59,564 nucleotides of DNA. It comes from Mustelus asterias (taxonomy: Eukaryota). Positions 2,537-53,269 of the stretch are shown piece after piece. A program made the position numbers and the translations under genes. The first letter of the stretch is position 1; each line of letters opens with the position of its first letter. The notes beneath the pieces are model-generated. The model was not told where the DNA came from. It saw only the letters and a program-made list of their open reading frames with translations, and did not search any database. Location: the NCBI RefSeq assembly GCF_964213995.1, contig NW_027592246.1, forward strand, positions 1-59,564, written 5' to 3'.

Positions 2537-3475
2537 TCACTCGTGAACTCGCTGGTGTCTCAGTAGGTGATAGGACTGAGTAAATCCCTTCCCACACTGG
2601 GAGCAGATGAATGGCCTCTCTCCAGTGTGAATTCGCTGGTGTCTCAGCAGTTGGAATGACTGAATGAATCCTATCCCACACTCAGAGCAGATGAAAGGCT
2701 TCTCTGTAGAGTGAACACGCTGGTGTCTCAGGAGGAGAGCTGACTGAGTGAATCCCTTACCACAGATGAAACAGATGAATGGGTTCTCCGCAGAGTGAAT
2801 TTGTTGATGTCTCTGCAAGCTCCACGACCGACTGAATCGCTTTCCACATTTAGTGCAAGAGAACGGCCTCGCCCCAGTGTGAACTCGCTGGTGTCGCAGG
2901 AGACTGAATGACCGAGTGAATCCCTTACCGCACACAGAACAGGAGAATGGGCTCTGACTAGAGTGAATGTATTGGTGTCTCTGTAGATTCCTTGTACTTT
3001 TGAAGCTCTTACCACAGTCCGAACATTTAAAAAGTCTCTCATCAGTGTGAACAAGCTGATGAGAAGTGAGATTAGTTAAACTGCTGAATCCCTTCCCACA
3101 CACAGAGCAGCTAAATGGTCTCTCCCCAGTGTGAACTTGCTGATGTACAGTGAGGTGAGATGACTGAGTGAATCCCATGCCACATTGGGAGCAGATGAAC
3201 GGCCTCACCCCAGTGTGAACTCGCTGGTGTCTCAGCAGGGTGGATGTCTGAGCAAATCCTTTCCCACACTTGAAGCAGGTGAATGGTCTCTCCCCAGTGT
3301 GACTGCGTCGATGAGTTTCCAGATCTGATGGGGATCTGATCACTTTACCACAGTCCCCATATTTCAGTGGCCTGTGTGTGATGTTGGCTCCCGTGTGAGT
3401 GCATCGATGATATTCCAGCCGGGATGGATAATTAAATCCCTTCCCACAGTCCCCACATTTCCACGGTTTCTCCAT
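2537..3475 (-). CDS. ZNF-A: C2H2 zinc-finger array protein, 11 finger units (unit 2 has C>Y), no effector domain
   Basis: 312-aa ORF starting [10 protein letters not shown], with CxxC..HxxxH repeats and TGERPF linkers. Candidate acceptor (tttcttttgcag on -) near 3839. Confidence 0.9.
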   Translation of the reverse strand: MEKPWKCGDCGKGFNYPSRLEYHRCTHTGANITHRPLKYGDCGKVIRSPSDLETHRRSHTGERPFTCFKCGKGFAQTSTLLRHQRVHTGVRPFICSQCGMGFTQSSHLTVHQQVHTGERPFSCSVCGKGFSSLTNLTSHQLVHTDERLFKCSDCGKSFKSTRNLQRHQYIHSSQSPFSCSVCGKGFTRSFSLLRHQRVHTGARPFSCTKCGKRFSRSWSLQRHQQIHSAENPFICFICGKGFTQSALLLRHQRVHSTEKPFICSECGIGFIQSFQLLRHQRIHTGERPFICSQCGKGFTQSYHLLRHQRVHE

Positions 3476-4071
3476 GGTGCTGGTGTCCTTGTGTCTCTCC
3501 AGGTTGCACGATCAGCTGAAGCTTCATCCACACACAGAACACATGTACAGTTTCTCCTCGCTGTGGATGGTGTGATGTTTTATCAGGCTGTGTAACTGGT
3601 TGAAGCTCTTTCCACAGTCAGTTCACTGGAACACTCTCATTCGGGTGTGTGTGTCTCGGTGCTTTTCCAGTCACAGTGATGTTTGAAATCTTTTCCCACA
3701 GACAGAACAGACATTCTCCTCCTTCCACAGTGAAAGGTTGATGATATTCAAATCCTGACGAATCGGGTGATTCTGTTAAATATTGATGTGATGTTTGCTT
3801 TTGTACTTTTTATCTGCAAATTCTCCCCTTCTAACACCCTGCAAAAGAAATTTAGGAAAATTATAACTAAGTCTGGATTAGAAGTTCTGAAAAGATAATT
3901 CTAGTTTTTCTGGAACATTTTTTCCTCTTTTGTTCCCCCAAATCTGTAAATCCCCGTCCCACACACTCTCCCTCCTCCCTGGGCTGAAATCCAAACCCAT
4001 CTCACCATCTCCACCATTTCTTTCCTCCACTCCCAGTTTTCTCCCTCCCTCTCCTCTGTCTGGGTGCAGAT

Positions 4072-4209
4072 ATCCACTCCATCTGACAAAGGAGCAGCGC
4101 TCCAAAAGCTAATCGCATTTGCTGCCAAATAAACCTGTTGGACTTTAACCTGGTGTTGTTAAAACTCTTACTGTGTTTACCCCAGTCCAATGCTGGCATC
4201 TCCACATCA
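4072..4209 (+). mobile_element. Penelope-like element 3' terminal fragment (family 1)
   Basis: Matches the terminal sequence of the GIY-YIG-bearing element at 35270-36044 (aaataaacctgttggactttaacctggtgttg...catctccacatca). Flanked by imperfect duplication tgggtgcagat / tgggttcagtt. Confidence 0.75.
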
Positions 4210-4559
4210 TGGGTTCAGTTCTCCAGCTCCTGTCTGCAGACTGACAATAAAACCAATGGGTCTTATTGGGGGTGTTGGGGCCTCCAGCGGGTGTTTGTGA
4301 ATCCTCCCCGCCCACCTCCCAGGGTTTCCTTCCTTCCCAGAGATCAGAGTCCTCATTGATCTGAGGCCAAAGTGTAACCTCTTATTTATTGTCCCCCTCC
4401 CCCATCCTCTGATGTGAACCATCCTCCAGTGGCTGAGCCAGGATGGGGCCGTTAACCTGGGCCTGTTCCCGGGAGGGAGGGAGGGAGAAGCCCCGCAGCT
4501 GCAAACAAGGGAGCTGACAATGATTCTGAAGGGTTTGCGGATCCACAAAGTGTTTCCAA

Positions 4560-5125
4560 ATCCTCCCAGCCACCGCCTAACGCTGACTCCGCTTCTCCGG
4601 GACAAACAAGCGCCAAGGACAGCAATGACACTGCGCATGCTCCACATCACAATGCTCGGGGGTTGATTGACGGCAACTCCGGACCAATAGGAAGAGGGGG
4701 CGGGGCTGGGGGACCGAGCGGGAGCGGCTGGTCCTCCAACCAATCAGAATGAATGAGGGGCGGGACCTGAAGCATGCGCAGTGCGGGTAATGGCGATGGA
4801 CGGACGGTTTTAAGTCGGAACCAAGATCAATACCAGGTAGAGGGCGGCGCGCGGGGAGCGATGAACATGGCGGGTGGGTGAAGAGCTTCCTAAACATGTT
4901 CAAAGGCAAACCCCGGAAATGAACTTCCCGGTTCCCCCCGTTTGTGGCAAATGGAGCCGCAACTTGTCGTGTTGGGCCTGGGCTGACTGCCGCCATTGAG
5001 GCTGAGTGTGGAAGACCGGCAGGGAGTGAAGTCCTGACGTCACAATAGAATTCATGACAGTAACGCGTCACAATGGAGAGTGAGTGTGACGTCACAATGG
5101 AGAGTGAGTGTGACGTCACAATAGA
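4560..5125. promoter_or_regulatory. CpG-rich bidirectional promoter (type A) between ZNF-A (-) and ZNF-B (+)
   Basis: GC box GGGGCGGGGC 4697-4706; CCAAT at 4684 and 4740; NRF1-like TGCGCATGC 4632 and GCATGCGCA 4772; YY1-like ATGGCG; CCGGAA; three TGACGTCA at 5035, 5087 and 5111. Lies between divergent ORFs. Confidence 0.75.
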
Positions 5126-6139: not shown

Positions 6140-7093
6140 ATGGAAGAAAATAGCACCGTTCACAGTGAAGAGAAACTGTACATATGTTCTCTGTGTGGAC
6201 AAGACTTCAACCAATCATCTGGCCTTTCGGAGCACAATTGCAGTCACAACAGGGAGGTGGCATGGAAATGTAGAGACTGTGGGAAGGAATTCGATTACCC
6301 ATCCCTGCTGGAAACTCATCGGCGCAGTCACACTGGGGAGAGGCCATTCACCTGCTCCCAGTGTGGAAAGGGTTTTGCTCACCCATCCACCCTAGTAAAA
6401 CACCAGCGAATTCACACTGGGGAGAGACCATTCACCTGCTCCCAGTGTGGGAAGCGATTTGCTCACTCATCCAATCTGCTGAAACATCAGCGAATGCACA
6501 CTGGAGAGAGACCGTTCACCTGCTCTGTTTGTGGGAAGGGATTCACTCAGTCATCCAACCTTGCATTACACAAGCAAATTCACACTGAGGAGAAGCCGTT
6601 CACCTGCTCCCAATGTGGGAAGGGATTCAGTCGGTCATCAAATTTGCTGACACACCAGACTGTTCACACTGGGGAGAGGCCGTTCACCTGCTCCCAGTGT
6701 GGGAAGGGATTTGCTCACTCACACACACTGCGGACGCACCAGCGAATTCACACTGGGGAAAGACCATACACCTGCTCTGTATGTGGGAAGGGATTCAATC
6801 AGTCATCCAACCTAGCAATACACAAGGAAGGGCACACCGGGGAGAGACCGTTCACCTGCTCCCAATTTGGGAAGGGATTTGCTCATTCAGCCAACCTGCT
6901 GAAACACCAGAGAGTTCACACTGGGGAGAGGCCATTCATTTGCTCCGTTTGTGGGAAAGGTTTTGCTCGCTCATCCAACCTGCGGTTACACCAGCGAGTT
7001 CACACTGGGGAGAGACCTTTCATCTGCTCCACATGTGGGAAGGGATTCACTCAGTCATCCACTCTGCAGACACACCAGCGAGTTCACAAGTAA
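6140..7093 (+). CDS. ZNF-B: C2H2 zinc-finger array protein, 11 finger units (unit 9 has C>F)
   Basis: ORF 6134..7093 with first ATG at 6140 ([19 protein letters not shown]...). Acceptor aatttcacag at 6041-6050. AATAAA at 7271, 7336 and 7351. Confidence 0.9.
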
Positions 7094-9975: not shown

Positions 9976-9984
9976 GTTGTAGAG

Positions 9985-12815: not shown

Positions 12816-13939
12816 TTACTTGTGAATTTCCTGGTGTGTCAGAAGATTCAATGAGGTAACATATCCCTTCCCACACTGCAAGCAGGTGAACGGCCCCTCC
12901 CCAGTGTGAACTCAATGATGTATTGGTAGTTTAGATGACTAATTGAATCCCTTCCCACACACAGAGCAGGTGAATGGCCTCTCCCTAATGTGAATTTGCT
13001 GGTGTGTGAACAAGGTGGCTGACTGAGCAAATCCCTTTCCACACTGGGAACAGGTGAATGGCCTCTCCCCAGTGTGAACTCGCTGGTGTTTCAACAAAGT
13101 AGATAAGTCAGCAAATCCCTTCCCACACTGGGAGCAAGTGAATGGCCTTTCCTGAGGCGCAGCACAGTGGTTAGCACTGCTGCCTCCCAGTTCCAGGGAC
13201 CTGGGTTCGATTCCCGGCTTGGGTCACTGTCTGTGTGGAGTTTGCACATTCTCCCCGTGTCTGCGTGCGTTTCCTCCGGGTGCTCCGGTTTCCTCCCACA
13301 GTCCAAAGATGTGCGGGTTAGGGCATTGGCCATGCTAAATTGACCCTTAGTGCCCTGGGATGTGTAGGTTAGAGGTATTAGTGGGGTAAATGTGTGGGGT
13401 TGTGGGGATACTGCCTGGTGGGATTATTGCCGGTGCAGACTCTATGGGCCGAATGGCCGCCTTCTGTACTGTAGGGTTTCTATGATTCTATGAGTATGAG
13501 TTCGCTGGTGTATCAGCAGAGTGGATGAGTGAGCGAATCCCTTCCCACATTCAGAGCAGGTGAACGGTTTCTCCCCAGTGTGAACTCGCTGGTGTATTGC
13601 GAGGTTGGATGACTGATTGAATCCCTTCCCACACTGGGAGCAGGTGAACGGCCTCTCCTCAGCATGAGTCCTTTGATGTATATTTAAGCTGGATAACTGA
13701 GTGAATTCCTTCCCACATTGAGAGCAGGTAAACGGCCTCTCCCCAGTGTGGCTGCGTCGATGAGTTTCCAGCAGGGATGGGTAATTGAATTCCTTCCCAC
13801 AATCCTCACACTTCCATGCCATCTCCCTGTTGTGACTGCAATTATGTTCCTAAAGGCTGGATGATTGGTTGAAGTCTTGTCCACAAACAGAACACGTGTA
13901 CAGTTTCTCTCCACTGTGAATGGTGCTTTTTTCTTCCAT
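12816..13939 (-). pseudogene. ZNF-C: inverted paralogue of ZNF-B, disrupted by a SINE; residual 126-aa 4-finger ORF at 13442..13822
   Basis: Collinear with ZNF-B from MEEKSTIHS to HK*. TAG at 13850-13852, SINE at 13157-13490, and further stops at 12939-12941 and 12912-12914. Confidence 0.85.
13157..13490 (+). mobile_element. HE1-like V-SINE inserted in the ZNF-C finger linker
   Basis: Near-complete SINE. TGAG at 13153-13156 and 13491-13494. Removing the insert restores HTQERPF. Confidence 0.9.
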
Positions 13940-15470: not shown

Positions 15471-17390
15471 ATAGAACATAGAACAGTACAGCACAGAACA
15501 GGCCCTTCGGCCCACGATGTTGTGCCGAGCTTTATCTGAAACCAAGATCAAGCTATCCCACTCCCTATCATCCTGGTGCGCTCCATGTGCCTATCCAATA
15601 ACCGCTTAAATGTTCCTAAAGTGTCTGACTCCACTATCACTGCAGGCAGTCCATTCCACACCACAACCACTCTCTGCATAAAGAACCTACCTCTGATATC
15701 CTTCCTATATCTCCCACCATGAACCCTATAGTTATGCCCCCTTGTAATAGCTCCATCCACCTGAGGAAATAGTCTTTGAACGTTCACTCTATCTATCCCC
15801 TTCATCATTTTATAAACCTCTATTAAGTCTCCCCTCAGCCTCCTCCGCTCCAGAGAGAACAGCCCTAGCTCCCTCAACCTTTCCTCATAAGACCTACCCT
15901 CCAAACCAGGCAGCATCCTGGTAAATCTCCTCTGCACTCTTTCCAGCGCTTCCACATCCTTCTTAAAGTGAGGTGACCAGAACTGCACACAATATTCCAA
16001 ATGTGGTCTCACCAAGGTTCTGTACAGTTGCTGCATAACCCCACGGCTCTTAAACTCCAACCACTTGTTAATAAAAGCTAACACACTCTAGGCCTTCTTC
16101 ACAGCTCTATCCACTTGAGTGGCAACCTTTAGAGATCTGTGGATATGGACCCCAAGATCTCTCTGTTCCTCCACAGTCTTCAGAACCCTACCTTTGACTC
16201 TGTAATCCACATGTAAATTAGTCCTACCAAAATGAATCACCTCACATTTATCAGGGTTAAACTCCATTTGCCATTTTTCAGCCCAGCTTTGCATCCTATC
16301 TATGTCTCTTTGCAGCCTACAACAGCCCTCCACCTCATCCACTACTCCACCAATCTTGGTGTCATCAGCAAATTTACTGATCCACCCTTCAGCCCCCTCC
16401 TCTAAGTCATTAATAAAAATCACAAAGAGCAGAGGACCAAGCACTGGTCCCTGTGGCACTCCGCTAGCAACCTGCCTCCAATCCAAAAATTTTCCATCCA
16501 CCACCACCCTCTGTCTTCGATCAGACAGCCAGTTACTTATCCAATCGGCCAACTTTCCCTCTATCCCACACCTCCTCACTTTCATCATAAGCCGACCATG
16601 GGAGACTTTATCAAATGCCTTAGTAAAATCCATGTATATGACATCAACTGCCCTACCTTCATCAACACACTTAGTTACCTCTTCAAAAGATTCTATCAAA
16701 TTTGTGAGGCACGACTTGCCCTTCACCAATCCGTGCTGACTATCCCGGATTAATCCGCATCTTTCTAAATGGTCGTAAATCCCATCCCTAAGGACCTCTT
16801 TCATCAATTTACCAACCACCGAAGTAAGACTAACCGGTCTATAATTACCAGGGTCATTTCTATTCCGTTTCTTAAACAGAGGAACAACATTCCCAACTCT
16901 CCAATTCTCTGGCACCATCCCCGTGGACAGTGAGGACCCAAAGATCAAAGCCAAAGTCTCTGCAATCTCATCCCTTGCCTCCCAAAGAATCCTAGGATAT
17001 ATTTCATCAGGCCCATGGGACTTATCGACCTTCAGTTTATTCAAAACTGCCAGGAAATCCTCCCTCCGAACATCTATTTCCTCCAGCCTATTAGCCTGTA
17101 ACACCTTATCTTCCTCAAAAACATGGCCCCTCTCCTTGGTGAACACTGAAGAAAAGTATTCATCACCTCGCCTATCTCTACTGACTCCATACACAAGTTC
17201 CCACGACTGTCCTTGACTGGCCCTAACCTCACCCTGGTCATTCTTTTATTCCTCACATAAGAGTAAAAAGCCTTGGGGTTTTCCTTGATCCGACCCGCCA
17301 AGGACTTCTCATGTCCCCTCCTAGCTCTCCTAAGCCCCCTTTTCAGCTTGTTCCTTGCTAACTTGTAACCCTCAATCGAGCCCATAAAAG
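15471..17390 (-). mobile_element. Young 5'-truncated CR1-clade (HER1-like) LINE with near-intact RT
   Basis: ORFs 17074..17415, 16088..17194 and 15548..16084 (one frameshift, one TAG). Motifs YRPVSLTS, YMDFTKAFDKV, SGVPQGPVLGP and FADD. Tail (ATAGAAC)n on +. Confidence 0.95.
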
Positions 17391-18543
17391 GCTGCTGAAG
17401 AAGATTAGGGCGCACGGAGTTGGGGGTAGTGTGTTAAAGTGGATTGGGGACTGGCTATCCGACAGGAAGCAAAGAGTCGGAATAAATGGGTGTTTTTCCG
17501 GTTGGAGGAAGGTAACTAGTGGCGTGCCGCAGGGATCGGTACTCGGGCCGCAACTATTTACCATTTATATAGATGATCTGGAGGAGGGGACGGAGTGTAG
17601 GGTAACGAAGTTTGCAGACGACACAAAGATAAGTGGAAAAGTGAATCGTGTGGAGGACGGAGAAGATCTGCAGAGAGATTTGGACAGGCTGAGTGAGTGG
17701 GCAAGGATATGGCAAATGGAGTATAACGTTGATAAATGCGAGGTTATACACTTTGGAGGAAATAATAACAAATGGGATTACTATCTCAATGGAAACAAAT
17801 TAAAACATGCTACCGTGCAAAGGGACCTGGGGGTCCTTGTGCATGAGACGCAAAAGCCCAGTCTGCAGGTACAACAGGTGATCAAGGCGGCAAATGGGAT
17901 GTTGGCCTATATTGCGAGGGGGATAGAATATAAAAGCAGGGATGACTTGATGCACCTGTACAGGGCATTGGTGAGGCCGCAGCTGTAATACTGTGTGCAG
18001 TATTGGTCCCCTTATATGAGGAAGGACATATTGGCATTGGAGGGAGTGCAGAGAAGGTTCACCAGGTTGATACCGGAGATGAGGGGTTTGGATTATGAGG
18101 AGAGGCTGAGGAGATTGGGTTTGTACTCGTTGGAGTTTAGAAGGATGAGGGGGGATCTTATGGAGACTTATAAGATAATGCGGGGGCTGGATAGGGTGGA
18201 GGCGGAGAGATTCTTTCCACTTAGTAAGGAAGTTAAAACGAGAGGACACAACCTCAAAATAAAGGGGGGTCGGTTTAAGACAGAGTTGAGGAGGAACTTC
18301 TTCTCCCAGAGGGTGGTGAATCTCTGGAATTCTCTGCCCACTGAGGTGGTGGAGGCTACCTCGCTGAATATGTTTAAAGCGCGGATGGATGGATTCCTGA
18401 TCGGTAAGGGAATTAAGGGTTATGGGGATCAGGCGGGTAAGTGGTACTGATCCACGTCAGATCAGCCATGATCTTATTGAATGGCGGGGCAGGCTCGAGG
18501 GGCTAGATGGCCTACTCCTGCTCCTATTTCTTATGTTCTTATG
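17391..18543 (+). mobile_element. Young 5'-truncated CR1-clade LINE, second subfamily
   Basis: ORFs 17431..17988 and 17995..18450 are in frame and separated by one TAA. Motifs SGVPQGSVLGP and FADD. Tail (TTCTTATG)n. Confidence 0.95.
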
Positions 18544-20097: not shown

Positions 20098-20508
20098 TCA
20101 CTCGTGAACTTGTTGGTGTCTCAGCAGGGCAGATGAAGCTCTGAAACCCTTACCACACTGAGAGCAGGTGAATGGCTTCTCCCCAGTGTGAACTCGCAGG
20201 TGGGATGACCGAGTGAATCCCTCCCCACATTGAGAGCAGGTGAACAGTTTCTCCCCAGTGTGAACTCGCTGGTGTGTCTGCAGGTTGGATAACTGACTGA
20301 ATCCCTCCCCACACTGAGAGCAGGTGAATGGTCTCTCCCCAGTGTGAACTCGCTGGTGTATCTGCAGGCTGGATAACTGAGTAAACCCTTTCCCACAATC
20401 AGAGCAGGTGAATGGTCTCCCCCCAGTGTGGCTGCGCCGATGAGTTTCTAGCAGAGATGGGTAATTGAATCCCTTCCCACAGTCCCCACATTTCCACGGT
20501 TTCTCCAT
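20098..20508 (-). CDS. ZNF-D: short C2H2 protein, 5 finger units (unit 4 has a 12-nt deletion)
   Basis: ATG of [10 protein letters not shown] at 20508 in CACCATGG context. Unit 4 reads [10 protein letters not shown], four codons shorter than its neighbours. Confidence 0.8.
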
Positions 20509-20558
20509 GGTGCGGGTGTCCTTGTGACTCTCCAGGTTAAACAATCAGTTCAATCTCA

Positions 20559-20699
<141 letters not shown>

Positions 20700-22189
20700 T
20701 CACATTTATGCAAAAAAAAAGTCTGAAGCAGACAGAACAGAAAAGTATTTCTCCTTTTAGATTGAAAGGCCGATGGTATTCAGGTCCAGATGAACTAAAT
20801 GACTGTCAGAATTTGACATGACATTTGTTCGAGATTTCTGTCTGTCAATCCTCACCTTCTCATATTCTGTGAAAGGAGGTTACAAAAGTCATCACTGTCA
20901 GCACAGATTAGAAATTCAGAACAGACAATTCTAGTTTCTATGGAACATTGTTTCCTCTCTCATTCCCCAAAAGCTGTGAATCTCCATCCCACACACTCTC
21001 CCTCCATTCTCACTCTGCTGAATCTAATATTCACCCTCCCAATTCAAATGTGTTTAATGGATAGAATTGTTTCAGTTGGCTAAGATACAGGGGGCTATAA
21101 TTGATCATGATCTTGAACTACTTGTGAGGGTGTTCAAGCAGAGATGATCAATAACTTGGAAATGAAATTGGAGGTGCTGCAGAATGGGATCCACTCGACA
21201 CTGACAGAAAGTCGGCATGGTCCCAAGTGGTCCAATGGACTCCTTCTGTGCTGTAATGACTCTATTACTGGAAATATATCACGTAGCTACAAGTTAGGGC
21301 TCAGGTTAGAAACTCCAAAATGTTTTATGGAGCCCGCCTGAATCATAAGTTTTACATCTTGAATTTGGCATGAAATGTTTCACTTCAGGTATGATTCAAA
21401 TGACCCACCTTTTCACAAAGTTTACTTAAGAATATAGTTAACATGTTTAGTAAGAAAATTAGCAAGAACTTTTAGCAATTACAAACAAAACAAAACAACC
21501 AAGATAATGCATAACCCATCAACAGCAGAATATTTTCTTCAGGAAGGCAAGACCTTGCTTTCAGATAACCAACAGAATTTCCAAATAAAACAGGGGAGAG
21601 AAAGCGAGAGAGACGTCTCTTTTCAGCGTGATGCCCCTTCTAAAACTAAACTGCATCTCAGAACTGAAAATGAAAGAACTTCTGTCACCTGACCTGCAAC
21701 CAGTTTTTTATCCACAAATCCCAAGTAAAACCAAACAACCTCTATATAAGCCACTTAAGGAGCAAATAAAGGACTCTTTGTAGACAAGCCGGTGCCATAA
21801 TGTAAAAGAAACTGAAAGGTTTATTTACAACAGCAGGATCATGATTTTGAGATTTAAAAATTCGTAAAGAAACACTAATGTCACACGACCGTACGATATT
21901 ACAGATTAGAAATAATAATAAATGTACATTACTGCAGAACCATACATGTCTAATCTTGCCATATGACAATACTGAACATATCTCTAATCTATATTAATTT
22001 ACAGTCCCCTTAAATGTCAGATATTTCCTGGGGAAACCAGCCCTTTAATTGTGAACATTAGGAAAGGGACCTTTGAGCCAGACAAATCAATGTGTCAAGC
22101 TGAGGGAGCAAAGGATGTCAATGTTTTTAACAGAGAGAGACCTGGGCCAACCTTTCCACAATCTGCACCCTCCCTGGATTCACTTCCTT

Positions 22190-24963: not shown

Positions 24964-25675
24964 GTGAATATTAGATACAGCAGAGTGAGAATGGAGGGAG
25001 AGTGTGTGGGACGGAGATTCACAGCTTTTGGGGAATGAGAGAGGAAAGAATGTTCACGAGAATCAGAGAATTCCTCCATCTTATCAGCCATCCCTGAGCC
25101 ATCATAATGAATCCCTCTTCTCAGTATACCCTTATCTCGGACTTGTCTGTACTGCTGGCAGTCTCACAAAGCAGCTGCCTGTGTGCTGATACGAGAAGCC
25201 CTGCTCGGCAAGTTTAATGCTCCATGACTGTGTCTTTAAAGAATGTTCCATAGAAACTAGAATTGACTGATTTGAATTTTGATCATGTACTGAATTGTGA
25301 TGTTTTTCTTAAATTGAATTACAGGATATTAGATGAGGAGAAATCACAGACAGAAATCTAAAATGTCAGATCTGGATCTGACAGAGTGACTCGATTCCTT
25401 GGGACCTGAATATCATCAGGCTCTGAATCTAGAAGGAGAAATGTTTGCCCAGTCTATCAGCTTCAGAAGATTTTAAACATCAGTGTGACTGGAAATGCAC
25501 TGAGACACACACACCCGAGTGAGAGTGTTCCAGTGCAATGAGTGTGGAAAGAACTTTAACCAGTTACACAGCCTGAAAGTACATCGCAGCATTCACAGCG
25601 GGAGAGACTGTACCCATGTTCTGTGTGAGATTTACCTGATTGTTTAACCTGGAGAGTCACAAGGACACCCGCACC

Positions 25676-26434
25676 ATGGAGAAACCGTGGAAATGTGGGG
25701 ACTGTGGGAGGAGATACAGATTCCCATCATATCTCGAAGCTCATCGGCGCATTCACACTGGAGAGAGGCCATTCACTTGCCCTTGGTGTGGGATGGGATT
25801 CAGTATTGTATCCACCCTGCAGAGACACCAACGAATTCACACTGGGGAGAGGCCGTTCACTTGCCCTTGGTGTGGGATGGGATTCAGTATTGTATCCACC
25901 CTGCAGACACACCAGCGAGTTCACACTGGGGAGAGACCGTTCACCTGCTCTCAGTGTGGGAAGGGGTTTGGTCATGCAGCCACCCTGCAGGCACACCAGC
26001 GAGTTCACACTGGGGAGAGGCCGTTCACCTGCTCTGTATGTGAGAAGGAGTTCACTCGGCTATCTAGCCTGCAGGTGCATCAGCGAGTTCACACCGGGGT
26101 GAGACCATTCACCTGCTCTCAGTGTGGGAAGGGATTCAATGATTTATATGCCCTGCAAACACATCAGCGAGTTCACACTGGAGAGAAGCCATTCACCTGC
26201 TCTCAGTGTGGGAAGGGATTCACTCAGTTATGCAACCTGCGGACACACCAGCGAGTTCACACTGGGGAGAGACCATTCTGCTGCACTCAATGTGGGAAGG
26301 TATACAGAGATTCATCCACCCTGCGGACACACCAGCGAGTTCACACCGGGGAGAGGCCATTCACCTGCTCTGTGTGTGAGAAGGGATTCAGAGTTTCATC
26401 CAGCCTGCTGAGACACCAGCGAGTTCACAAGTGA
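25676..26434 (+). CDS. ZNF-E: C2H2 array protein, 9 fingers
   Basis: ATG of [10 protein letters not shown] at 25676 (CACCATGG). Fingers 2 and 3 are a near-identical 84-nt duplicate ([15 protein letters not shown]). Confidence 0.9.
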
Positions 26435-30802: not shown

Positions 30803-31813
30803 TCACTTGTGAACTCGCTGGTGTCTCTGCAGGGAGGATGAAACAGTGAATCTCTTTCCACAGACAGAGCAGATGAATGGTCTCTCCCCAGTGTGAACTC
30901 GCTGATGTCTTTGCAGGTTGGATGCTGTTCTAAATCTCTTTGTGCAGTGAGAGCAGCTGAACGGTCGCTCCTCAGTGTGAATGCGTTGGTGGATCATCAA
31001 TTCCTGAGAGCTTTTGAAGTCGCTCCCACAGTCAGAGCATTTAAAGGGTCTCTCCTGGGTGTGAGTGACTGTGTGCGTCGACAGGGCAGATGACTGAGTG
31101 AATCCCTTCCCGCACACAGAGCAGGTAAATGGTTTCTTCCCAGTGTGAACTCGCTGGTGAACCTGCAAGTGTGATGACGTTCTAAACCTCTTTGTGCAGT
31201 GAGAGCAGCTGAACGGTCTCTCCCCGGTGTGAATGCGCTGGTGGACCCTCAGATCTGAAGCATGTTTGAAGGCACTCCCACACTCAGAGCATTTAAAGTG
31301 TCTCTCATTTGTGTGAGTGACTTTGTGACTTAGCAAGTGTGATAACTGAGTGAACACCATCCCACACACACAGCAGGTAAATGGCTTCTCTCCGGTGTGA
31401 ACTCGCTGGTGGGTCCGCAGGTTGGATGACGTTCTAAATCTCTTTGTGCAGTGAGAGCAGCTGAACGGTCTCTCCTCAGTGTGAATGCGCTGGTGGGACA
31501 CCAGTTCACCAGAGCTTTTGAAGCCACTCCCACAGTCAGAGCATTTAAAGGGTCTCTCATTGGTGTGAGTGAAATTGTGACTCAGCAGGTGGGATAACTG
31601 AGTGAATCCTTTCCCACAGTCAGAACAGATGAACAGTCTCTCCCCAGTGTGAACTCGCTGGTGTCTCTGCAGATTAGGTAAGTCAGTGAATCCTTTCCCA
31701 CACACAAAGCAGGTGAACGGTCTCTCTCCAGTGTGACTGCGTTGATGAACTTCCAGCCGAGATGGGACCGTGAATCCCTTCCCACAGTCCCCACATTTCC
31801 ACGGTTTCTCCAT
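30803..31813 (-). CDS. ZNF-F: C2H2 array protein, 12 fingers with a triplicated three-finger module
   Basis: ATG of [10 protein letters not shown] at 31813. Fingers 3-5, 6-8 and 9-11 repeat (..THTxERxFKCSxCGS..[15 protein letters not shown]). Confidence 0.92.
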
Positions 31814-32504
31814 GGTGCGGGTGTCCTTGTGACTCTCCAGGTTAAACAATCAGTTAAATCTCACACAGAACACGGGTACAGTCTCCCCCCGCTGTGAATG
31901 CTGCGATGTATTTTCAGGCTGTGTAACTGGTTCAAGCTCTTTCCACACTCAGTGCACTGGAACACTCTCACTCTGGTGTGTGTGTGTCTTGGTGCTTTTT
32001 CAGTTGCACTGATGCTTAAAATCTCTTGAAACAGACAGCTGAGAGAAACATTTCTCCCTCTGGATTTAAAGGCCGATGATATTCAGGTCCCGATGAATTG
32101 AGTGACTCTGTCAGACGTTGATGGGACGTTTGGTTTGCGATTTCTGTCTGTAAATCCTCACCATCTGATATCCTGTAAAAAGTCATCAGTCAGTACAGGA
32201 TAGAAATTCAGAACAGACAGTTCTAGTTTCTATGAAACATTCTTTCTCTCTCATTCCCCAAAAGCTGTGAATCTCCATCCCACACACTCTCCCTCCATTC
32301 TCACTCTGCTGTATCTAATATTCACCCTCCCAATTCTCCTGAAGGTGCTGATTGAGGCTGATTGACAGATCCATGCTCACTGCTTCCTGCCCTGGACACA
32401 GAGAGCTGGAAATCTCCATGCAGGCGGCCAGACAGATATATGTCTATCTGACTGGACTAACAATGTGTGGAATGTACAGACTGGACTCACTTCCTCCCCT
32501 TCAG

Positions 32505-34210: not shown

Positions 34211-35269
34211 TAAACATAGAACATAGAACAGTACAGCACAGTACAGGCCCTTCAGCCCTCGATGTGCCGAGCTTTGTCCGAAACCAAGATCAAGCTCGCC
34301 CACTCCCTATCATCCTGGTGTGCTCCATGTGCCTATCCAATAACCGCTTGAAAGTTCCTAAAGTCTCCGACTCCACTATCACAGCAGGCAGTCCATTCCA
34401 CACCCCAACCACTCTCTGAGTAAAGAACCTACCTCGGACATCCCTCCTATATCTCCCATCATGAACCTTATAGTTATGCCCCCTCGTAACAGCTACATCC
34501 ACCCGAGGAAATAGTCTCTGAATGTCCACTCTATCTATCCCCCTCATCATCTTATAAACCTCTATTAAGTCGCCTCTCATCCCCCTCCGCTCTAAAGAGA
34601 AAAGCCCCAGCTCCCTCAAGCTTTCCTCATAAGACCTACCCTCCAAACCAGGCAGCATCCTGGTAAATCTCCTTTGCACTCTTTCCAATGCTTCCACATC
34701 CTTCTTATAGTGAGGTGACCAGAACTGCACACAATATTCCAAACGAGTCTCACCAAGGTCCTGTACAGTTGCAGTATAAGCCCACAGCTCTTAAACTCAA
34801 ACCCCCTGTTAATAAACGCTAACACACTAAAGGCCTTCTTCACAGCTCTATCCACTTGAGTGGCAACCTTCAGAGGTCTGTGGATATGAACCCCAAGATC
34901 TCTCTGTTCCTCCACATTCCCCAGAACCCTGCCGTTGACACTGCAATCCGCATTCAAATTTGTCCGACCAAAATGAATCACCTCGCACTTATCAGGGTTA
35001 AACTCCATTTGCCATTTTTCAGCCCAGCTTTGCATCCTATCTATGTCTCTTTGCAGCCTACAACAGCCCTCCACCTCATCCACTACTCCACCAACCTTGG
35101 TGTCATCAGCAAATTTACTGATCCACCCTTCAGCCCCCTCCTCCAAGTCATTGATAAAAATCACAAATAGCAGAGGACCCAGCACTGATCCCTGTGGTAC
35201 ACCACTGGTAACTGGTCTCCAGTCTGAAAAATTTCCATCCACCACCACCCTCTGTCTTCTATGAGATAG

Positions 35270-40799: not shown

Positions 40800-41720
40800 C
40801 TGTGAACTTGTTGGTGCCTCAGCAGCTGTGATGAAATTCTGAACCCTTTTTATACACTGAGCAGGTTGACGGTTTCTCCCCAGTGTAAACTCACTGATGT
40901 CTCAACAGGTGGGATAACTGAGTGAATTCCTTCCCACACTGAGAGCAGGTGAATGGCCTCTCCCCATGTGAACTCGCTGGTGTCTCTGCAGGTTGGATGA
41001 ACGAGCGAAACCCTTCCCACACTGAGAGCAGGTGAACGGCCTCTCCCCGCTGTGAATGCGCTGATGTGTCCGCAGGACGGATGACCGAGTGAATCCCTTC
41101 CCACACTGAGAGCAGGTGAACGGCCTCTCCCCGCTGTGAATGCGCTGATGTGTCCGCAGGTCGGATGACCGAGCGAATCTCTTCCCACACTGAGAGCAGG
41201 TGAATGGCCTCTCCCCAGTGTGAACTCGCTGGTGTCTCTGCAAAGTGGATGACAAGGTGAATCCCTTTCCACACTGAGAGCAGGTGTACGGCCTCTCCCC
41301 AGTATGAACGCGTTGATGTGTCTGCAGGTCGGATAACCGAGTGAATCCCTTTCCACACTGAGAGCAGGTGAATGGCCTCACCCCAGTGTGAATTCGCTGG
41401 TGTGTCCATAGATTGGATAACTGGTTGAATCCCTTCCCACACTGAGGGCAGGTGAACGGCCTCTCCCCAGTGTGAATTCGCTGGTGTCTCTGCAAAGTGG
41501 ATGACACAGTGAATCACTTTCCACACTGAGAACAGGTGAACGGTCTCTCTCCAGTGTGAACTCGCTTGTGTGTCTGCAGGTGGGGGAACCGAATGAATCC
41601 CTCCCCACACTCAGAGCAGATGAATGGCCTCTCCCCAGTGTGGTTGCGCCGATGAGCATCCAGCAGAGAGGGGTATCTGTATCTCTTCCCACAGTCTGCA
41701 CATTTCCATGGTTTCTCCAT
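40800..41720 (-). pseudogene. ZNF-G: disrupted C2H2 array (about 11 finger units)
   Basis: [10 protein letters not shown] at 41720. GGA>TGA at 41514-41516 in finger 3, a 1-nt frameshift near 40966, and the normal stop region is deleted near 40800. Confidence 0.85.
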
Positions 41721-42479
41721 GGTGCAGGTGTCCTTGCCTCTCCCTAGGGTGGCCAATCAGTTGAAGCCTTGTCCACACACAGAACACGGGTACAGTCTCT
41801 CCCCGCTGTGAATGGTGTGATATTTATTCAGGCTGTGTAACTGGTTAAAGCTCTTCAGTCAGTGCACTGGAACACTCTCACTTGAATGTGGAAGTGTGTT
41901 GGTACTTTTCCAGTCACATTAATGTTTGAAATCTTTTCAAATCTTCCAGATTCAATGGCCGATGATATTCAGGTCCCAAGGAATATGACTCTGCCAGATC
42001 TAGACGTGACGTTTGAGATTTTAGCCTGTGATTCCTCTTTCAATATCCTGCAAAACAAGTTGACACAAGTCATCACTGTCAGTACAGGATCGAAATTCAG
42101 AACAGACAATTCCAGTTTCTATGGAACATTCTTTCCTCTCTCATTCCCCAAAAGCTGTAAATCTCCATCCCACACACTCTCCCTCCATTCTCACTCTGCT
42201 GTATCGAATATTCACCCTCCCAATTCTCCTGAAGGTGCTGATTGACGCTGATTGACAGATCCATGCTCACTGCTTCCTGTCCTGGACACAGAGAGCTGGA
42301 AATCTCCATGCAGGCTGCCAGACAGATATATGCCCATATGACTGGACTAAAAAATGTGTGGAATATACAGACTGGATTCACTTTCTTACCCTTCAGTTGC
42401 TGCAAGTCCCCAATTTCCCCCAGAATGAGAAAAGAAATGGAAAGGGGGAAACATTGATTTCCTCCCAGATGTTGCCCAG

Positions 42480-42965
42480 AGGAGGAAGTTTCAATCATTG
42501 GCCAACTTCCGCATTGTGACGGCACAATGGAACATCGCCTGAATTAGCCAATAGGAATAAGTCTGTTCCCATGTGACGTCCTGTGGTTCCAGTGCGCAGG
42601 CCCGGGCGAACGTCCACGGGAGCCCCGCCCCCACCCATTGTTCCCCTCCCCCTGCACCAGATCCAGCCAAGGTTTCCAGGCAACCGGCTGACGGCTCCGG
42701 CCAGAGCGAGAAGCCGCTCGGTGATCTCCCCCCCACCCCCCCCCCCCTCTCTCTACGGCGGCTGCTGCTCCAAAAAGAGATCGAGAGCGACCGCTGGCGG
42801 CAGCCGCACTGCGCCTGCTCCGGACAGCTCGGCTCAGCAGCGCTCTCTGCGCCTGCGTGCTGGGCTGCCAGCTGAGGGAGTGGGGGAGGGGACTTTGCAA
42901 AATCTCTTCCCATCATTTTCTTCCAAGTCCCGCAGTTTGATTTGAAACAGAACAGCTTCTGTTTG
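42480..42965. promoter_or_regulatory. CpG-rich bidirectional promoter (type B-like) upstream of ZNF-G
   Basis: ACTTCCG, TGACGTC, CCAAT and GC box. The 42240-42730 segment is duplicated at about 49860-50345. The plus-arm exon ends at CAACATCT|GTGAGG, 44305. Confidence 0.7.
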
Positions 42966-42968
42966 TAG

Positions 42969-44286
42969 CTTCATCACAGACTCAAACTTCACCACAGACT
43001 CCAACTTCACCACAGACTCAAACTTCACCACAGACTCAAACTTCACACACAGATTCCAACTTCACCACAGACTCAAACTTCACCACAGACTCAAACTTCA
43101 CCACAGACTCAAACTTCACCACAGACTCAAACTTCACACACAGACTCCAACTTCACACACAGACTCCAACTTCACCACAGACTCAAACTTCACACACAGA
43201 CTCAAACTTCACACACAGACTCCAACTTCACCACAGACTCAAACTTCACACACAGACTCAAACTTCACACACAGACTCAAACTTCACCACAGACTCAAAC
43301 TTCACCACAGACTCAAACTTCACACACAGACTCAAACTTCACACACAGACTCAAACTTCACCACAGACTCAAACTTCACCACAGACTCAAACTTCACACA
43401 CAGACTCAAACTTCACACACAGACTCAAACTTCACACACAGACTCAAACTTCACCACAGACTCAAACTTCACCACAGACTCAACCTTCACCACAGACTCA
43501 AACTTCACCACAGACGCAAACTTCACACACAGACTCAAACTTCACCACAGACTCAAACTTCACACACAGACTCAAACTTCACACACAGACTCAAACTTCA
43601 CACACAGACTCAAACTTCACACACAGACTCAAACTTCACACACAGACTCAAACTTCACACACAGACTCAAACTTCACACACAGACTCAAACTTCACCACA
43701 GACTCAAACTTCACAGACTCAAACTTCACACACAGACTCAAATTTCACACACAGACTCAAACTTCACACAGACTCAAACTTCACACACAGACTCAAACTT
43801 CACACACAGACTCAAACTTCACACACAGACTCAAACTTCACCACAGACTCAAACTTCACACACAGACTCAAACTTCACCACAGACTCAAACTTCACCACA
43901 GACTCAAACTTCACCACAGACTCAAACTTCACCACAGACCCAAACTTCACACACAGACTCAAACTTCACCACAGACTCAAACTTCACACACAGACTCAAA
44001 CTTCACACACAGACTCAAACTTCACCACAGACTCAAACTTCACACACAGACTCAAACTTCACACACAGACTCAAACTTCACACACAGACTCAAATTTCAC
44101 ACACAGACTCAAACTTCACACACAGACTCAAACTTCACACACAGACTCAAACTTCACCACAGACTCAAACTTCACCACAGACTCAAACTTCACACACAGA
44201 CTCAAACTTCACACACAGACTCAAACTTCACACACAGACTCAAACTTCACACACAGACTCAAACTTCACACACAGACTCAAACTTC
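42969..44286 (+). repeat. Minisatellite of about 1.3 kb with interspersed 18-bp and 19-bp units
   Basis: Units CCACAGACTCAAACTTCA (18) and CACACAGACTCAAACTTCA (19), roughly 70 copies, with few substitutions. Confidence 0.97.
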
Positions 44287-45154
44287 ATCCTCTGGACAAC
44301 ATCTGTGAGGAAAACACTTTCTTTCTCCCCCTGGGAAACACAGAGACAGAGAAATTCTCTGGAACTAGAATTAGAGCCAAATATACTGAGGGGGAAATGT
44401 TTGTGATTTTGTGAAACCTGTTTTTGTTGTCTGAGCTGACTGGAATTAGAGCCAGAGCAGGAGTAATCCAGGAGAATGATTTGGAGATAAAGCAAAATCC
44501 TGCAGATGCTGGAGTTCTGAAAAGAACCGACCTGCTGAGTTTATCCAGCATTTTCTCTATTTATTATAATGATTTTGTTACCTGGGTTTGAATCCCACCA
44601 CGGTTCAATAAAAATATTGATGAGCATGAATTAATTGTTGTAAAAACACATCTGCTTCTCTAATGCCCTTTAAGGAAGGAAATCTGCCGCCCTGATCCAG
44701 TCTAACCGACATGTGACTGGATTCACAGACAATTCAAGGGCTGACTGGGTAAACAGGGAATGTCACCATCAGAAAAACAGAGAATGTCACCATCAGAAAA
44801 ACAGAGCCCCCTGGAGGGCAGAAGGGTTAGGACAGGTTATGGAGAAGGTTAAAACTGTCATCATTGAGAACAACACAGACTTTAACAGAACAACTGGTCC
44901 CAAAAACAATCTCTTGTAGTTGGTGTGGCAGGGTGTGGTGAATCAGGTTTAAAAAGAGTCAAATTATATATGTTTTCTAGTTTGGACAATCACATTTAAA
45001 TCTGTAACTCAGATGAGGATATGAATTGGTGTTTGGTGGTAAGATCTAAACCTGTGTATTATGCCTGGAAGCCTTAAACCCAGAGTGAGAATATTTCAAA
45101 CCAGGGTTCAAAATAAACGGCTGTGGAGGGTGAATTCACTCTCAAAAGAAAACA

Positions 45155-46881: not shown

Positions 46882-47469
46882 TCACTTGTGAACTTGTTGA
46901 TGTCTCAGGAGCCATTGTGACTGAGTGAATCCCTTCCCACACACAGAGCAGTTGAATGGCCTCTTAGTGTGAGTGCGTTGGTGAGCCAGCAGGTTGAAAG
47001 ACTTTGCGAATCCCTTCCCACACACGGAGCAAGTGAATGGCCTCTCCCCTGTGTGAACTCGCTGGTGAGCAGAGAGGTTGGATGACCGATTGAATACCTT
47101 CCCACATACGGAGCAGATGAATGGTCTCTCCCCAGTATGAACTCGCTGGTGTGACAGCAGGTGGAATGACTGAGTGAATCCCTTCCCACACACGGAGCAG
47201 ATGAATGGTCTCTCCCCGGTGTGAGTGTGTTGGTGCACAGTGAGTGCTGAAGAATGCCTGAACCTCTTCCCACAGGAGGTGCAGGTGAATGGCTTTTCCT
47301 CAGTGTGAATTCTCTGGTGAGACCAAAGGCCAGATGACTGAATGAATCCCTCCCCACAGACAGAACAGGTGAACGGTTTCTCACCAGTGTGACTGCGCCG
47401 ATGATTTTCCAGCAGGGAAGGGTAACTGAATCCTTTCCCACAGTCCCCACATTTCCACGGTTTCTCCAT
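46882..47469 (-). CDS. ZNF-H: C2H2 array protein, 7 fingers
   Basis: 195-aa [13 protein letters not shown]...HQQVHK. Upstream region is paralogous to ZNF-A. Confidence 0.9.
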   Translation of the reverse strand: MEKPWKCGDCGKGFSYPSLLENHRRSHTGEKPFTCSVCGEGFIQSSGLWSHQRIHTEEKPFTCTSCGKRFRHSSALTVHQHTHTGERPFICSVCGKGFTQSFHLLSHQRVHTGERPFICSVCGKVFNRSSNLSAHQRVHTGERPFTCSVCGKGFAKSFNLLAHQRTHTKRPFNCSVCGKGFTQSQWLLRHQQVHK

Positions 47470-48026
47470 GATACTGGTGTCCTTATGTTTCTCCAGGTTA
47501 AACGATCAGTTGAAGCCTCATCCACACACAGAACATGTGTACAGTTTCTCCTTGCTGTGAATGGTGTGATGTTTTTTAAGGCTGTGTAACTGGATAAAGC
47601 TCTTTCCACAGTCAACTCACTGAAACAGTCTCACTCGGGTGTGCGTGTATCTTGGTGCTTTTTCAGTCACACTGATGTTTGAAATCTTCTCCTCCAGACA
47701 GAAGACAAACATTTCTCCTTCCACGTTCAAAGTCTGAGGATATTTAAGTCCAAGTGAATCGAGACTCTGTCTGATTTTGATGTGATGTTTCTTCACCTCA
47801 CCTGTAAAAGGAGTTTACAAAATTAATCACTGTCAGTCCAGGATAGAAATTTTGAACAGGCAATTCTAATTCTCTGGAAAATTTCTTCCTCTCTTGTTCC
47901 CCAAATCAATAAATTCCTGTCCCACAAACTCTCCCTCCTCCCTGGGCTGAAATCCAAACCCATCTCACCATTTCTTTTCTCCACTCCCAGTTTGCTCCCT
48001 CCCTCTCCTCTGTCTGGGTTCAGTTC

Positions 48027-48194
48027 TGATGTGGAGATGCCGGCGTTGGACTGGGGTGAACACAGTAAGAGTTTTAACAACACCAGGTTAAAGTCCAACA
48101 GGTTTATTTGGTAGCAAACACCTAATGGTAGCTAATGGCATTTGCTACCAAATAAACCTGTTGGACTTTAACCTGGTGTTGTTAAAACTCTTAT
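48027..48194. mobile_element. Small fold-back PLE family 1 insertion with 12-13-bp TSD
   Basis: Inverted terminal arms. TGGGTTCAGTTC(T) at 48015 and 48195. Confidence 0.85.
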
Positions 48195-48772
48195 TGGGTT
48201 CAGTTCTCCAGCTGCTGTCTGCAGACTGACAATAAAACCAATGGGTCTGATTGGGGGTGTTGGGGCCTCCAGCGGGTGTTTGTGAATCCTCCCCGCCCAC
48301 CTCCCAGGGTTTCCTTCCTTCCCAGAGATCAGAGTCCTCATTGATTTGAGGCCAAAGTGTAACCTCTTATTTATTGTCCCCCTCCCCCATCCTCTGATGT
48401 GAACCATCCTCCAGTGGCTGAGCCAGGATGGGGCCGTTAACCTGGGCCTGTTCCCGGGAGGGAGGGAGGGAGAAGCCCCGCAGCTGCAAACCAGGGAGCT
48501 GACAATGATTCTGAAGGGTTTGCGGATCCACAAAGTGTTTCCAAATCCTCCCAGCCACCGCCTAACGCTGACTCCGCTTCTCCGGGACAAACAAGCGCCA
48601 AGGACAGCAATGACACTGCGCATGCTTCACATCACATGCCCGGGCACTGATTGACGGCAGCGCCGGACCAATAGGAAGAGGGGGCGGGGCTGGAGGACCG
48701 AGCTGGAGCAGCTGGTCCTCCAACCAATCGGTGTGAATGAGGGGCGGGACCTGAAGCATGCGCAGTGCGGGT

Positions 48773-50719: not shown

Positions 50720-51920
50720 AGAAAATGATCCATTTCTGCCCACTGTTTGCTGTTAGCCAATCTTCTATCCACGCCAATATGTTATCCCCGCAGCATGAAC
50801 TTTTATTTGCTGCAATAACCTTTCATGTGGCACCTCATCAAATGTCTTCTGGAAATCTGAGTACAGCACATCCACCGGTTTCCCTTTATCCAATTCCCGA
50901 TGGGGAATTTTAGAAAATTGAACAACACATCAACTATCTCACTCTGTTAAGACCCGAGAATGAAGCCCAGCAGGACCCGAGGACTCATCAGCCCACAGCT
51001 CCAACAGTTTGCTGAGGACCACTTCCCTGGGAATTGTGCTTTTTCAGAGTTCATCCCACACTTCTGTTTTCTGATTTCCAGCTGTTTCTGAGTTTTAACT
51101 GTATCCTCTATTGTGAACACCGAGGCAAAATACTTGTTCAATTCATCTCCCAGCTCCTTATTTTTCATTATCAATTCCTGGACTCACTTTCTATTAGACA
51201 GTTAAGAAATGAGGTCGAGCAAGTGACTGAAGTGTCAGTCAAGGAGCACTATTGGGAGCACCAATAGTTTCAAAATAGTTCAGGAAAAAGATAGGACAGG
51301 TCCACAGGTCAAGGCCCTAAACTGGAGCAGGGCCACTTTTGTGGGCATTAGGCAGGATCTAGCAGATGTCGATTAGGTGAGTTTGTTTGAAGGGAAAGGA
51401 ATGACTGGCAAATGGGAGGTTTTCAAAGTGTGATATCAAGAGTCCAGGGGCAGTATATTCCTGTTAAGATGCAGGGAAAGAATGGTAAATTTAAGGATCT
51501 CTGGCAGACAAGGGACATTGAGGCTCTGGTCAGGTAAAAGAAGGAAGCATACATTGGGTTTAGGCAATCGGGGACAAGTGAATCACTCTGACTATAAAAA
51601 GTGTAAGAAAATACTGAAGAGGGAAATCAGGAGGACAAAAAGAGGGTCTGATATGGATCTGGCAGGTAAGATTAAAGAAAATTCCAAGAGGTTCTATAGC
51701 TATATTAAGAGTAAGACGGTGGCTAGAGAGAGAATAGATCCCCTTAAAAATCAGTATGGCCATCTGTGTGTGGAGCCACAGGAGATGGGTGAGATTTTTA
51801 ATGAATACTTCTCCTCTGTGTTTACTGCGGAGAGCACCATGGGTGCTAAAGAAATAAGGGAAACAAGTGGTGATGTCTTGGGCACACGCATGTTACTTGG
51901 GAGGAGGTATCTGCAGCCTT
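50720..51920. mobile_element. Old CR1 fragments on both strands in the ZNF-I intron
   Basis: ELNKYFASVFT on - (50947..51174). KREIRRTKR..KIKENSKRFYSYIK..FNEYFSSVFT on + (51482..51994). Confidence 0.8.
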
Positions 51921-52107
51921 ATAAAAGCAAATTACTGCGGATGCTGGAATCTGAAACCACGAGAGAAAATGCTGGAAAATCTCAGCAGTTCTAGCAGCAT
52001 CTGTAAGGAGAGAAAAGAGCTGATGTTTCTTGTCTAGATGGCCCTTTGTCAAAGCTCTGAAACATCAGTTCTTTTCTCTCCATACAGATGCTGCCAGACC
52101 TGCTGAG
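51921..52107. mobile_element. PLE family 2 fold-back fragment
   Basis: Reverse terminal motif followed by an inverted arm (ctcagcag..gcagcatctg versus cagatgctgccagacctgctgag). Confidence 0.65.
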
Positions 52108-52594
52108 AATGGGGAGAGAGTATGTGGGATGGAGATTTACAGCTTTTGGGGAATGAGAGAGGAAAGAATGTTCCATAGAAATTGTCTGTTCTGAATTTCT
52201 ATCCTGTACTGACACTGATGACTTTTGTAAACTCATTTTACAGGATCTTGAAAGAGGAATCACAGGCCGAAATCTCAAACGTCACGTCTAGACGCGACAG
52301 AATCATATTCCTTGGGACCTCAATATCATCGGAATTTGAATCCAGAAGGAGAAATGATTGTCCAGTCTGTCGATTTGAAAAGATTTGAAATGTCAGTGTG
52401 AGTGAAAAAGCATCGACACACTGCCACACTTGAGTGAGAGTGTTCCAATGCACTGACTAAAGAGCTTTAACCAGTTACACAGTCTGAATAAATATCACAC
52501 CATTCACAGCGGGTAGAGACTGTAATCTTGTTCTGTGTGTGGACGAAGTTTCAACTAATTGTCCACCCAAGGGAGAGGTAAGGACACCTGCACC

Positions 52595-53269
52595 ATGGAG
52601 AAACCATGGAAATGTGTGGACTGTGGGAAAAGATACAGAGCCCCATGTCTGCTGGCAGCTCATTGGCGCAGCCACACTGGGGAGAGACCATTCATCTGCT
52701 CTCAGTGTGAGAAGGGATTCATTCAGTTATCCAGCCTGCAGACACACGAGCGAGTTCACACTGGGGAGAGGCCATTCACCTGCTCTCAATGTGGGAAGGG
52801 ATTCACTCAGTCATCCCACCTGCAGACACACCAGCGAGTTCACACTGAGGAGAGGCCATTCACCTGCTCTCAGTGTGGGAAGGGATTCATTCAGTTATCC
52901 AGCCTGCAGAGACACCAGCGAGTTCACATTGGAGAGAGGCCGTTCACCTGCTCTCAGTGTGGGAAGGGATTCACTTGTTCATCTAACCTGCAGACACACC
53001 AGCGAGTTCACACTGGGGAGAGACCGTTCACCTGCTCTCAGTGTGGGAAGGGATTCACTCAGTTATCCACCCTGCAGACACACCAGCGAGTTCACACTGG
53101 GGAGAGACCATTCACCTGCTCTCAGTGTGGGAACGGATTCACTCAGTTATCCAGCCTGCAGACACACCAGCGAATTCACACTGGGGAGAGGCCGTTCACC
53201 TGCTCCCAGTGTGGGAAGGGATTCAGAGTTTCATCCACCCTGCTGAGACACCAGCAAGTTCACGAGTGA
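52595..53269 (+). CDS. ZNF-I: C2H2 array protein, 8 highly similar fingers
   Basis: ATG of [10 protein letters not shown] at 52595 (CACCATGG). Acceptor ttttacag near 52243. Confidence 0.9.

Follow-up and report, generated by a model that had tools for sequence, protein, structure and literature searches.

A stop codon 36 nucleotides before the start of a large shark zinc-finger family is probably a fossil of one founder gene

In seven zinc-finger genes of the shark Mustelus asterias, the exon that encodes the fingers opens with a leader of finger-like sequence containing an in-frame stop codon, and the protein begins at an ATG exactly 12 codons, or 36 nucleotides (nt), beyond it. These genes (ZNF-A, D, E, F, G, H and I) lie on a 59,564-nt contig (NW_027592246.1 of assembly GCF_964213995.1), all of which was analysed and which we call the window. 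Their arrangement raises the question of whether the stop and its distance from the start form a translational device or are simply inherited. A sequence-only reading of the window had proposed a possible device acting through the stop and its spacing, either an upstream open reading frame (uORF) with re-initiation or regulated readthrough. We found that the feature is real and widespread and that the proposed device is not supported. Instead, the stop, the 36-nt spacing and the MEKPW start are, taken jointly, probably the fossil of a single founder gene.

The stop, the 12-codon spacing and the linker ATG are present in all seven genes at the positions first reported (Table 1). The stop is TGA in the five minus-strand genes and in plus-strand ZNF-E, and TAA in plus-strand ZNF-I, and the protein after the ATG opens MEKPW in every case. 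The ATG context, CACCATGG in six genes and ATCATGG in ZNF-H, was likewise as described, and the translation quoted for the ZNF-A leader was exact. Measured from the predicted splice acceptor, the leaders are 327-363 nt long, but only about the last 245 nt, comprising three dead fingers, are finger-like. With its TGA read as X, the ZNF-A leader still matches Pfam zf-C2H2 (E 2e-12); the tandem C2H2 domains of the coding arrays match at E 4e-56 in ZNF-E and 4e-65 in ZNF-B, a window gene that lacks the arrangement. The nearest named relatives of the window proteins are shark gene models. One of the seven genes, ZNF-G, has its reading frame broken by an internal stop after 68 codons. As ZNF-D, E and F have a 7-nt deletion in common, and ZNF-G and I a 4-nt deletion, the seven loci are not independent, and the sharing reflects descent rather than repeated origin.

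The family extends far beyond the window: matches to a 25-mer taken from the leader number 3,553 in the genome at two or fewer mismatches, against 0 for its reversed control. Paralogues gathered from the window and 280 loci gave 307 profile hits, of which 31 were partial or at an edge and were dropped. Clustering the remaining 276 at 96% identity gave 152 groups. The analysis used the 123 whose leader was almost complete; 29 with a partial leader or belonging to a second, short-leader class were left out. Genes were called intact (n = 77) if they had the ATG, at least four fingers and at most one finger out of frame. This sample is non-random, as many loci were chosen by the leader 25-mer or by the pattern around the stop, and a 28-gene census drawn from blocks of neighbouring stretches plus the window served as a check. 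In all there are at least 4,500 zinc-finger loci in the two classes, dense on contigs C71, C23, C12, C75 and C87-C111. ZNF-A and ZNF-E are each represented by about 19-20 copies (95-100% identity), and the distance between the two on one contig is often about 21 kb, as it is in the window (2500-26500); this recurring pairing suggests a recently duplicated multi-gene unit.

Selection on the codons was gauged from the minimum number of changes that a tree requires for each column and allele; CpG-prone columns were set aside, and frame-blind leader rates supplied the expectation. Across the 123 paralogues, the ratio of nonsynonymous to synonymous change (omega) was 0.99 over the 43 codons that precede the stop (p 0.93) and 1.02 in the 12 spacer codons (p 0.89), compared to 0.59 over the 60 codons that follow the ATG (p 2e-29). 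The pattern was the same for nonsense changes, with 30 before the stop against 34.6 expected and 14 after the ATG against 42 expected, and the census gave omega values of 0.99, 1.07 and 0.70 for leader, spacer and the codons following the ATG. The dN/dS check on leader codons for which the earlier reading had called thus reveals no protein-level constraint. Frameshifting length changes are frequent in all 36-nt blocks of the leader, the third dead finger lacks its final histidine, and in none of the 77 intact genes is the frame open from the splice acceptor to the ATG. The earlier proposal that former coding fingers had become a 5' leader, leaving the MEKPW finger as the N-terminus of the family, is borne out by purifying selection that acts after the ATG and not before it.

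The stop and the spacing could nonetheless be kept for reasons other than coding. Among the intact genes, the stop is present in 67, replaced by a sense codon in 7 and deleted in 3; the spacing is 36 nt in 63 of the 77 and 18-37 nt in the other 14, 8 of which are not multiples of three. The stop codon has undergone 14 changes, where the median over 56 leader codons is 15 (111 genes), and TAA occurs in 14 of the 123 paralogues through several separate changes, so that TGA is not invariant. Genome-wide, TGA or TAA is retained in 927 of 992 pattern matches and lost in 65, while the neighbouring AAC is retained in 927 of 1,051 and changed in 124; after scaling for base-specific rates, stop loss stands at 0.86 of expectation, for copies that are not independent. 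In deeper comparisons, a diversity of 0.24, versus 0.31 at fourfold sites, places the spacer with the least conserved parts. The stop therefore changes about as fast as its neighbours, and both it and the spacing are dispensable in intact genes, which most likely makes them a fossil.

Why, then, exactly 36 nt? The stop occupies helix position -1 in a finger, while the ATG takes the place of the linker glycine, and all regular C2H2 fingers have a distance of 12 codons between these two positions. Similarly, a purine at -3 and a G at +4 already surround 426 of 435 linker glycine codons in genes of the family. The spacing is thus a product of finger repeat geometry, and the Kozak letters are those that ordinary linkers supply.

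The short-leader class, which includes ZNF-B and ZNF-C and has 1,007 motif matches in the genome, indicates where the stop may have come from. Its members lack about 130-145 nt of the leader, the finger homologous to the third dead one is still coding, and the start is an upstream ATG whose counterpart in the ZNF-H alignment is a GTG. As first reported, ZNF-B has CAA at the stop codon position and the linker NREVAW, and starts upstream. In four examples of the class, the codon at the stop position is CAA (three) or CGA (one), and the linker codon is AGG in three. Deamination of CGA yields TGA and CAA. One CGA-to-TGA change and one AGG-to-ATG change would hence be the simplest origin, and it is likely that the shared stop goes back to one ancestral CpG mutation passed to all later duplicates. 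A single inherited CGA-to-TGA lesion had been named in the sequence-only reading as an outcome that would undo the device; the relatives point to just that history. In two short-leader models from other sharks, P0053 and P0075, the frame is open from the acceptor to the MEGK start, a hint of an older N-terminal extension from upstream exons.

ZNF-C had been presented as a paralogue of ZNF-B with a TAG in the same finger and an ATG where ZNF-B has GTG. Both codons exist, but they lie at other positions than the shared stop and start and are 27 nt apart. Among 42 genome-wide matches of the B/C subtype, the TAG occurs in 1, and the ATG, without a stop, in 39. ZNF-C was therefore ruled out as a parallel origin, the TAG being a private nonsense change. 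Its frame (13442-13500, minus strand) leaves the fingers and continues in unrelated sequence that also occurs near 37200, and the gene was probably truncated by an inserted repeat.

These observations fit a simple history. The front fingers of a founder gene would have died, and one change in a linker codon, likely AGG to ATG given the AGG of the sister class, would have created a ready-made strong start; tandem and segmental duplication would then have spread the arrangement. Ribosomes would reach the MEKPW ATG by ordinary scanning, either skipping short and variable upstream ORFs or re-initiating after them, and the stop, at -39, would have no role in most genes. The product would consist of fingers only, leaving no space for an effector domain ahead of them.

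Other sharks appear to share the arrangement. In contigs from four other organisms (four sequencing runs), a stop is the dominant state over the ZNF-A stop codon, with TAA as a minority (depths of 106/1,030, 13/404, 27/214 and 9.5/186), and no CGA-type change was found there among the rows listed. MEKPW is also where gene models of Heterodontus, Pristiophorus and Chiloscyllium begin. Heterodontus model P0009 crosses the stop site in another frame, where its residues are compatible with a stop and rule out CGA, while model P0005 has an arginine at the stop site and lacks the methionine. Two further Heterodontus models, P0013 and P0015, start nine codons earlier (MERHKD) at the position of a CTG in the spacer, and one of them no longer has the methionine of MEKPW; these models may reflect a near-cognate start within the spacer. 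In a protein search with the leader read through, matches were crowded out by long generic zinc-finger proteins.

Several results weigh against the fossil reading. Because the trees are unrooted and the paralogues recombine, the numbers of changes are only approximate, and the evidence for a CGA origin comes from relatives. In young copies of ZNF-A and ZNF-E, leader and spacer carry 55 variants in 698 sites compared to 30 in 230 for the intron (ratio 0.60, p 0.032), and in 13 young clusters the figures are 209 in 4,479 and 90 in 1,457 (0.76, p 0.031). One 30-nt stretch of the leader, from -136 to -107, has undergone 0.44 of the expected changes in the 123 genes. At the stop itself, stop-losing changes on the tree number 7 against 13.0 expected (one-sided P 0.053), and exchanges between TGA and TAA number 9 against 4.9 (p 0.018 in a smaller set). 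The sequence-only reading had named divergence at the neutral intronic rate as a further outcome that would undo the device; this holds in part, the leader changing at 0.60-0.76 of the intron rate. Mild constraint is ordinary for a 5' untranslated region. We relied on the introns of young duplicates since synonymous sites of the array outpace the leader about 2.6-fold on the tree, a rate probably inflated by finger shuffling; a comparison in 43 genes with a homologous intron was not used, as these genes had been chosen for intron identity and were biased.

The slow leader raises an alternative in which the leader is kept for a site within the second dead finger, acting as DNA or as RNA, with the stop and its 36 nt as passengers. 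The most conserved part of the leader (-156 to -109) has a diversity of 0.09, or 0.11 in loci not chosen by motif, versus 0.15-0.30 elsewhere; the 30-nt stretch keeps its deficit in the census, which was not chosen by motif (0.57 of expected, lowest-window permutation p 0.04); and its thousands of genomic matches, together with the lag of the leader behind young introns, would be consistent with such a site. However, many loci were sampled by exact motif match, the signal free of that bias is modest, and gene conversion could produce the same dip. The approximately 1,000 short-leader genes do without the stretch, RNA folding gave no signal in the leader (mean z +0.3 to +1.0 over four windows in 25 genes) or in the stretch itself (mean z +0.3 to +0.8), and no Rfam family was found over 31700-32500 on the leader side of ZNF-F, where the one match was at chance level. 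We therefore regard a cis-element as unlikely. In a bolder form of the idea, which has a small chance of being right, the dead finger would serve more than 3,500 effector-less genes as a shared 30-nt regulatory site through which one factor, perhaps a family member, would control thousands of genes together, with the stop as a weak barrier that keeps the proteins to fingers alone.

That the stop acts as a weak barrier in its own right, blocking in-frame upstream starts and keeping a broken finger off the N-terminus, would account for the shortfall of stop losses on the tree and genome-wide and for the excess of stop-keeping exchanges. Yet the shortfall is weaker in intact genes (6 against 8.4 expected, P 0.27) than in the whole set, while the excess is stronger in broken genes, which hold 5 of 6 such exchanges. 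An out-of-frame TGA at -110 has an equally low change count (7), G-to-A counts vary between 0 and 12 over the TpG columns, and 10 of the 77 intact genes manage without the stop. A barrier function is, on balance, quite improbable.

In the uORF version of the original proposal, translation of a uORF would terminate at the -39 stop and resume 36 nt further on, tuning the output of the family. This version can draw on upstream ATGs in 69 of 71 intact leaders. The commonest uORF starts at about -245 (ATG in 55 of the 77 intact genes) and mostly spans 11-15 codons, but it ends at an earlier TGA at about -200, some 155 nt short of the stop in question, and its ATG ranks with the more variable codons of the leader, with 37 changes versus 14 at the stop. 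Counting AUG starts within the finger exon, the -39 stop ends an ORF in only 4 of the 77 intact genes, ZNF-E alone among the six intact genes of the window. With a spacing that also varies from 18 to 37 nt, tuning through this stop is highly doubtful, although re-initiation after the short uORF at about -245, with no role for the 36-nt gap, is plausible.

Regulated readthrough or TGA recoding into a longer isoform that includes the leader fingers is scarcely credible, even though most genes have stop and ATG in one frame and zinc fingers are still recognised in the leader: omega is close to 1, nonsense changes are not depleted, frameshifts lie on both sides of the stop, no intact leader is open and only 18 of 77 retain the earlier stop in the frame of the ATG, the third finger has lost its last histidine, and TAA has repeatedly taken the place of TGA.

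Transcript evidence bears on whether the leader belongs to the messenger RNA at all. In run X2, which we guess to be RNA, summed contig depth falls from 3,133 to 136 at the predicted acceptor of ZNF-G, and one X2 contig joins 42049 to 42665, in the CpG-rich region upstream of this gene. These contigs of relatives hint that the leader is exonic, with a first exon joined to an acceptor upstream of it. No splice past the stop, the third outcome held to undo the sequence-only reading, was seen among the joints listed, and there were no joints over the ZNF-A stop region in the four runs, all from organisms other than the source. Two of the listed joints, 41649-41762 and 41719-41790, do cross the stop, but they lack splice-type ends and are not splices. 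Coverage in run X1 was higher in the intron than in the leader and run X4 had none in the leader; neither was used. An optional 66-nt exon with an ATG in strong context is predicted upstream of the ZNF-G finger exon. Against a home-made and noisy KRAB-B-like profile, 84% of shuffles scored at or above the median of its peptides. This exon and the following 170-nt intron (42048-42281, minus strand) share about 95% of their sequence in 43 of the 111 paralogues, whose leaders share only about 88%, which suggests a 5' module spread recently by gene conversion.

The family resembles the KRAB-ZNF clusters of tetrapods and the FiNZ-ZNF genes of cyprinids (PMC10547256) in being large and clustered, with single-exon fingers and TGEKP linkers, and also in its short upstream exons, rapid turnover, many broken copies and repeat-rich surroundings. 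In those families, however, an upstream exon encodes an effector domain, whereas here no intact gene is open from acceptor to ATG, so no upstream domain is in frame; the product is predicted to be fingers only, and this is not a KRAB-type family. PF01352 was absent from the chondrichthyan matches listed. Lineage-specific tandem zinc-finger expansions are described in PMC10547256, whose main text does not contain "shark" or "cartilaginous" and whose supplements may list shark counts; the whale shark study (PMC8455134) mentions C2H2 enrichment in general terms only. No description of a leader of dead fingers was found in the literature searched, which covered few subscription journals. Public shark models named "zinc finger protein ...-like" (Heterodontus, Pristiophorus, Chiloscyllium, Cetorhinus) are automatic annotations with the same MEKPWKC or MEGKSTIH N-termini, and several fused ones among them run through pieces of the leader in or out of frame. 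Like short-uORF re-initiation systems, for which uORF length and intercistronic distance are determinants according to PMC5972666, the leaders carry short uORFs; unlike a re-initiation device, no start feeds the stop in 73 of 77 genes, and neither start nor distance is conserved. As for programmed readthrough and selenocysteine recoding, the in-frame TGA between finger-like stretches is a likeness, while the absence of upstream coding constraint or frame and the frequent TAA are differences.

Other features of the window are listed in Table 1. A near-identical stretch lies upstream of both ZNF-A (4207-4743) and ZNF-H (48168-48626). A tandem repeat of about 1.4 kb (42941-44414), with strong strand skew and all three plus frames open, adjoins the CpG-rich promoter region of ZNF-G. 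Between the zinc-finger genes lie fragments (15548-18450, 34290-35344 and 58006-59315) that, judging from their motifs, resemble long interspersed element (LINE) reverse-transcriptase ORFs.

Table 1. Positions of leaders, stops, coding sequences and associated features in the window
Feature	Position	Strand	Basis
ZNF-A coding sequence from the MEKPW ATG, 312 amino acids, 10 fingers	2537..3475	-	
ZNF-A leader, 5' part of the finger exon, three dead fingers at its end	3476..3838	-	sequence, Pfam
ZNF-A shared stop TGA, helix position -1 of the third dead finger	3512..3514	-	
Core of the most conserved stretch (-136 to -107), ZNF-A	3588..3608	-	
Same core in the other window genes	20614-20634, 25551-25571, 31919-31939, 41833-41853, 47582-47602, 52462-52482		
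ZNF-B, short-leader class; upstream start, homologous finger coding, CAA at stop position	6140..7093	+	
ZNF-C, short-leader class; private TAG 13850-13852, internal ATG 13820-13822; likely pseudogene	13442..13852	-	
ZNF-D leader (stop TGA 20545-20547, ATG 20506-20508) and 136-amino-acid coding sequence	20098..20866	-	
ZNF-E leader (stop TGA 25637-25639, ATG 25676-25678) and 252-amino-acid coding sequence	25325..26434	+	
ZNF-F leader (stop TGA 31850-31852, ATG 31811-31813) and 336-amino-acid coding sequence	30803..32172	-	
ZNF-G leader (stop TGA 41757-41759, ATG 41718-41720); broken frame; acceptor 42047/42048	41514..42047	-	
Optional 66-nt exon upstream of the ZNF-G finger exon, ATG in strong context	42216..42281	-	predicted from splice-site motifs
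ZNF-H leader (stop TGA 47506-47508, ATG 47467-47469) and 195-amino-acid coding sequence	46882..47801	-	
ZNF-I leader (stop TAA 52556-52558, ATG 52595-52597) and 224-amino-acid coding sequence	52244..53269	+	

The leader of dead fingers accounts for automatic shark gene models that start at MEKPW or run into broken frames, and its 30-nt stretch is the best lead that remains from it. With broken copies included, the two classes make up at least 4,500 motif matches, compared to a chordate median of 489 ZNF ORFs quoted in PMC10547256. The larger class is predicted to have no upstream effector domain, unlike the KRAB and FiNZ families, and the question that this raises is how such proteins act.

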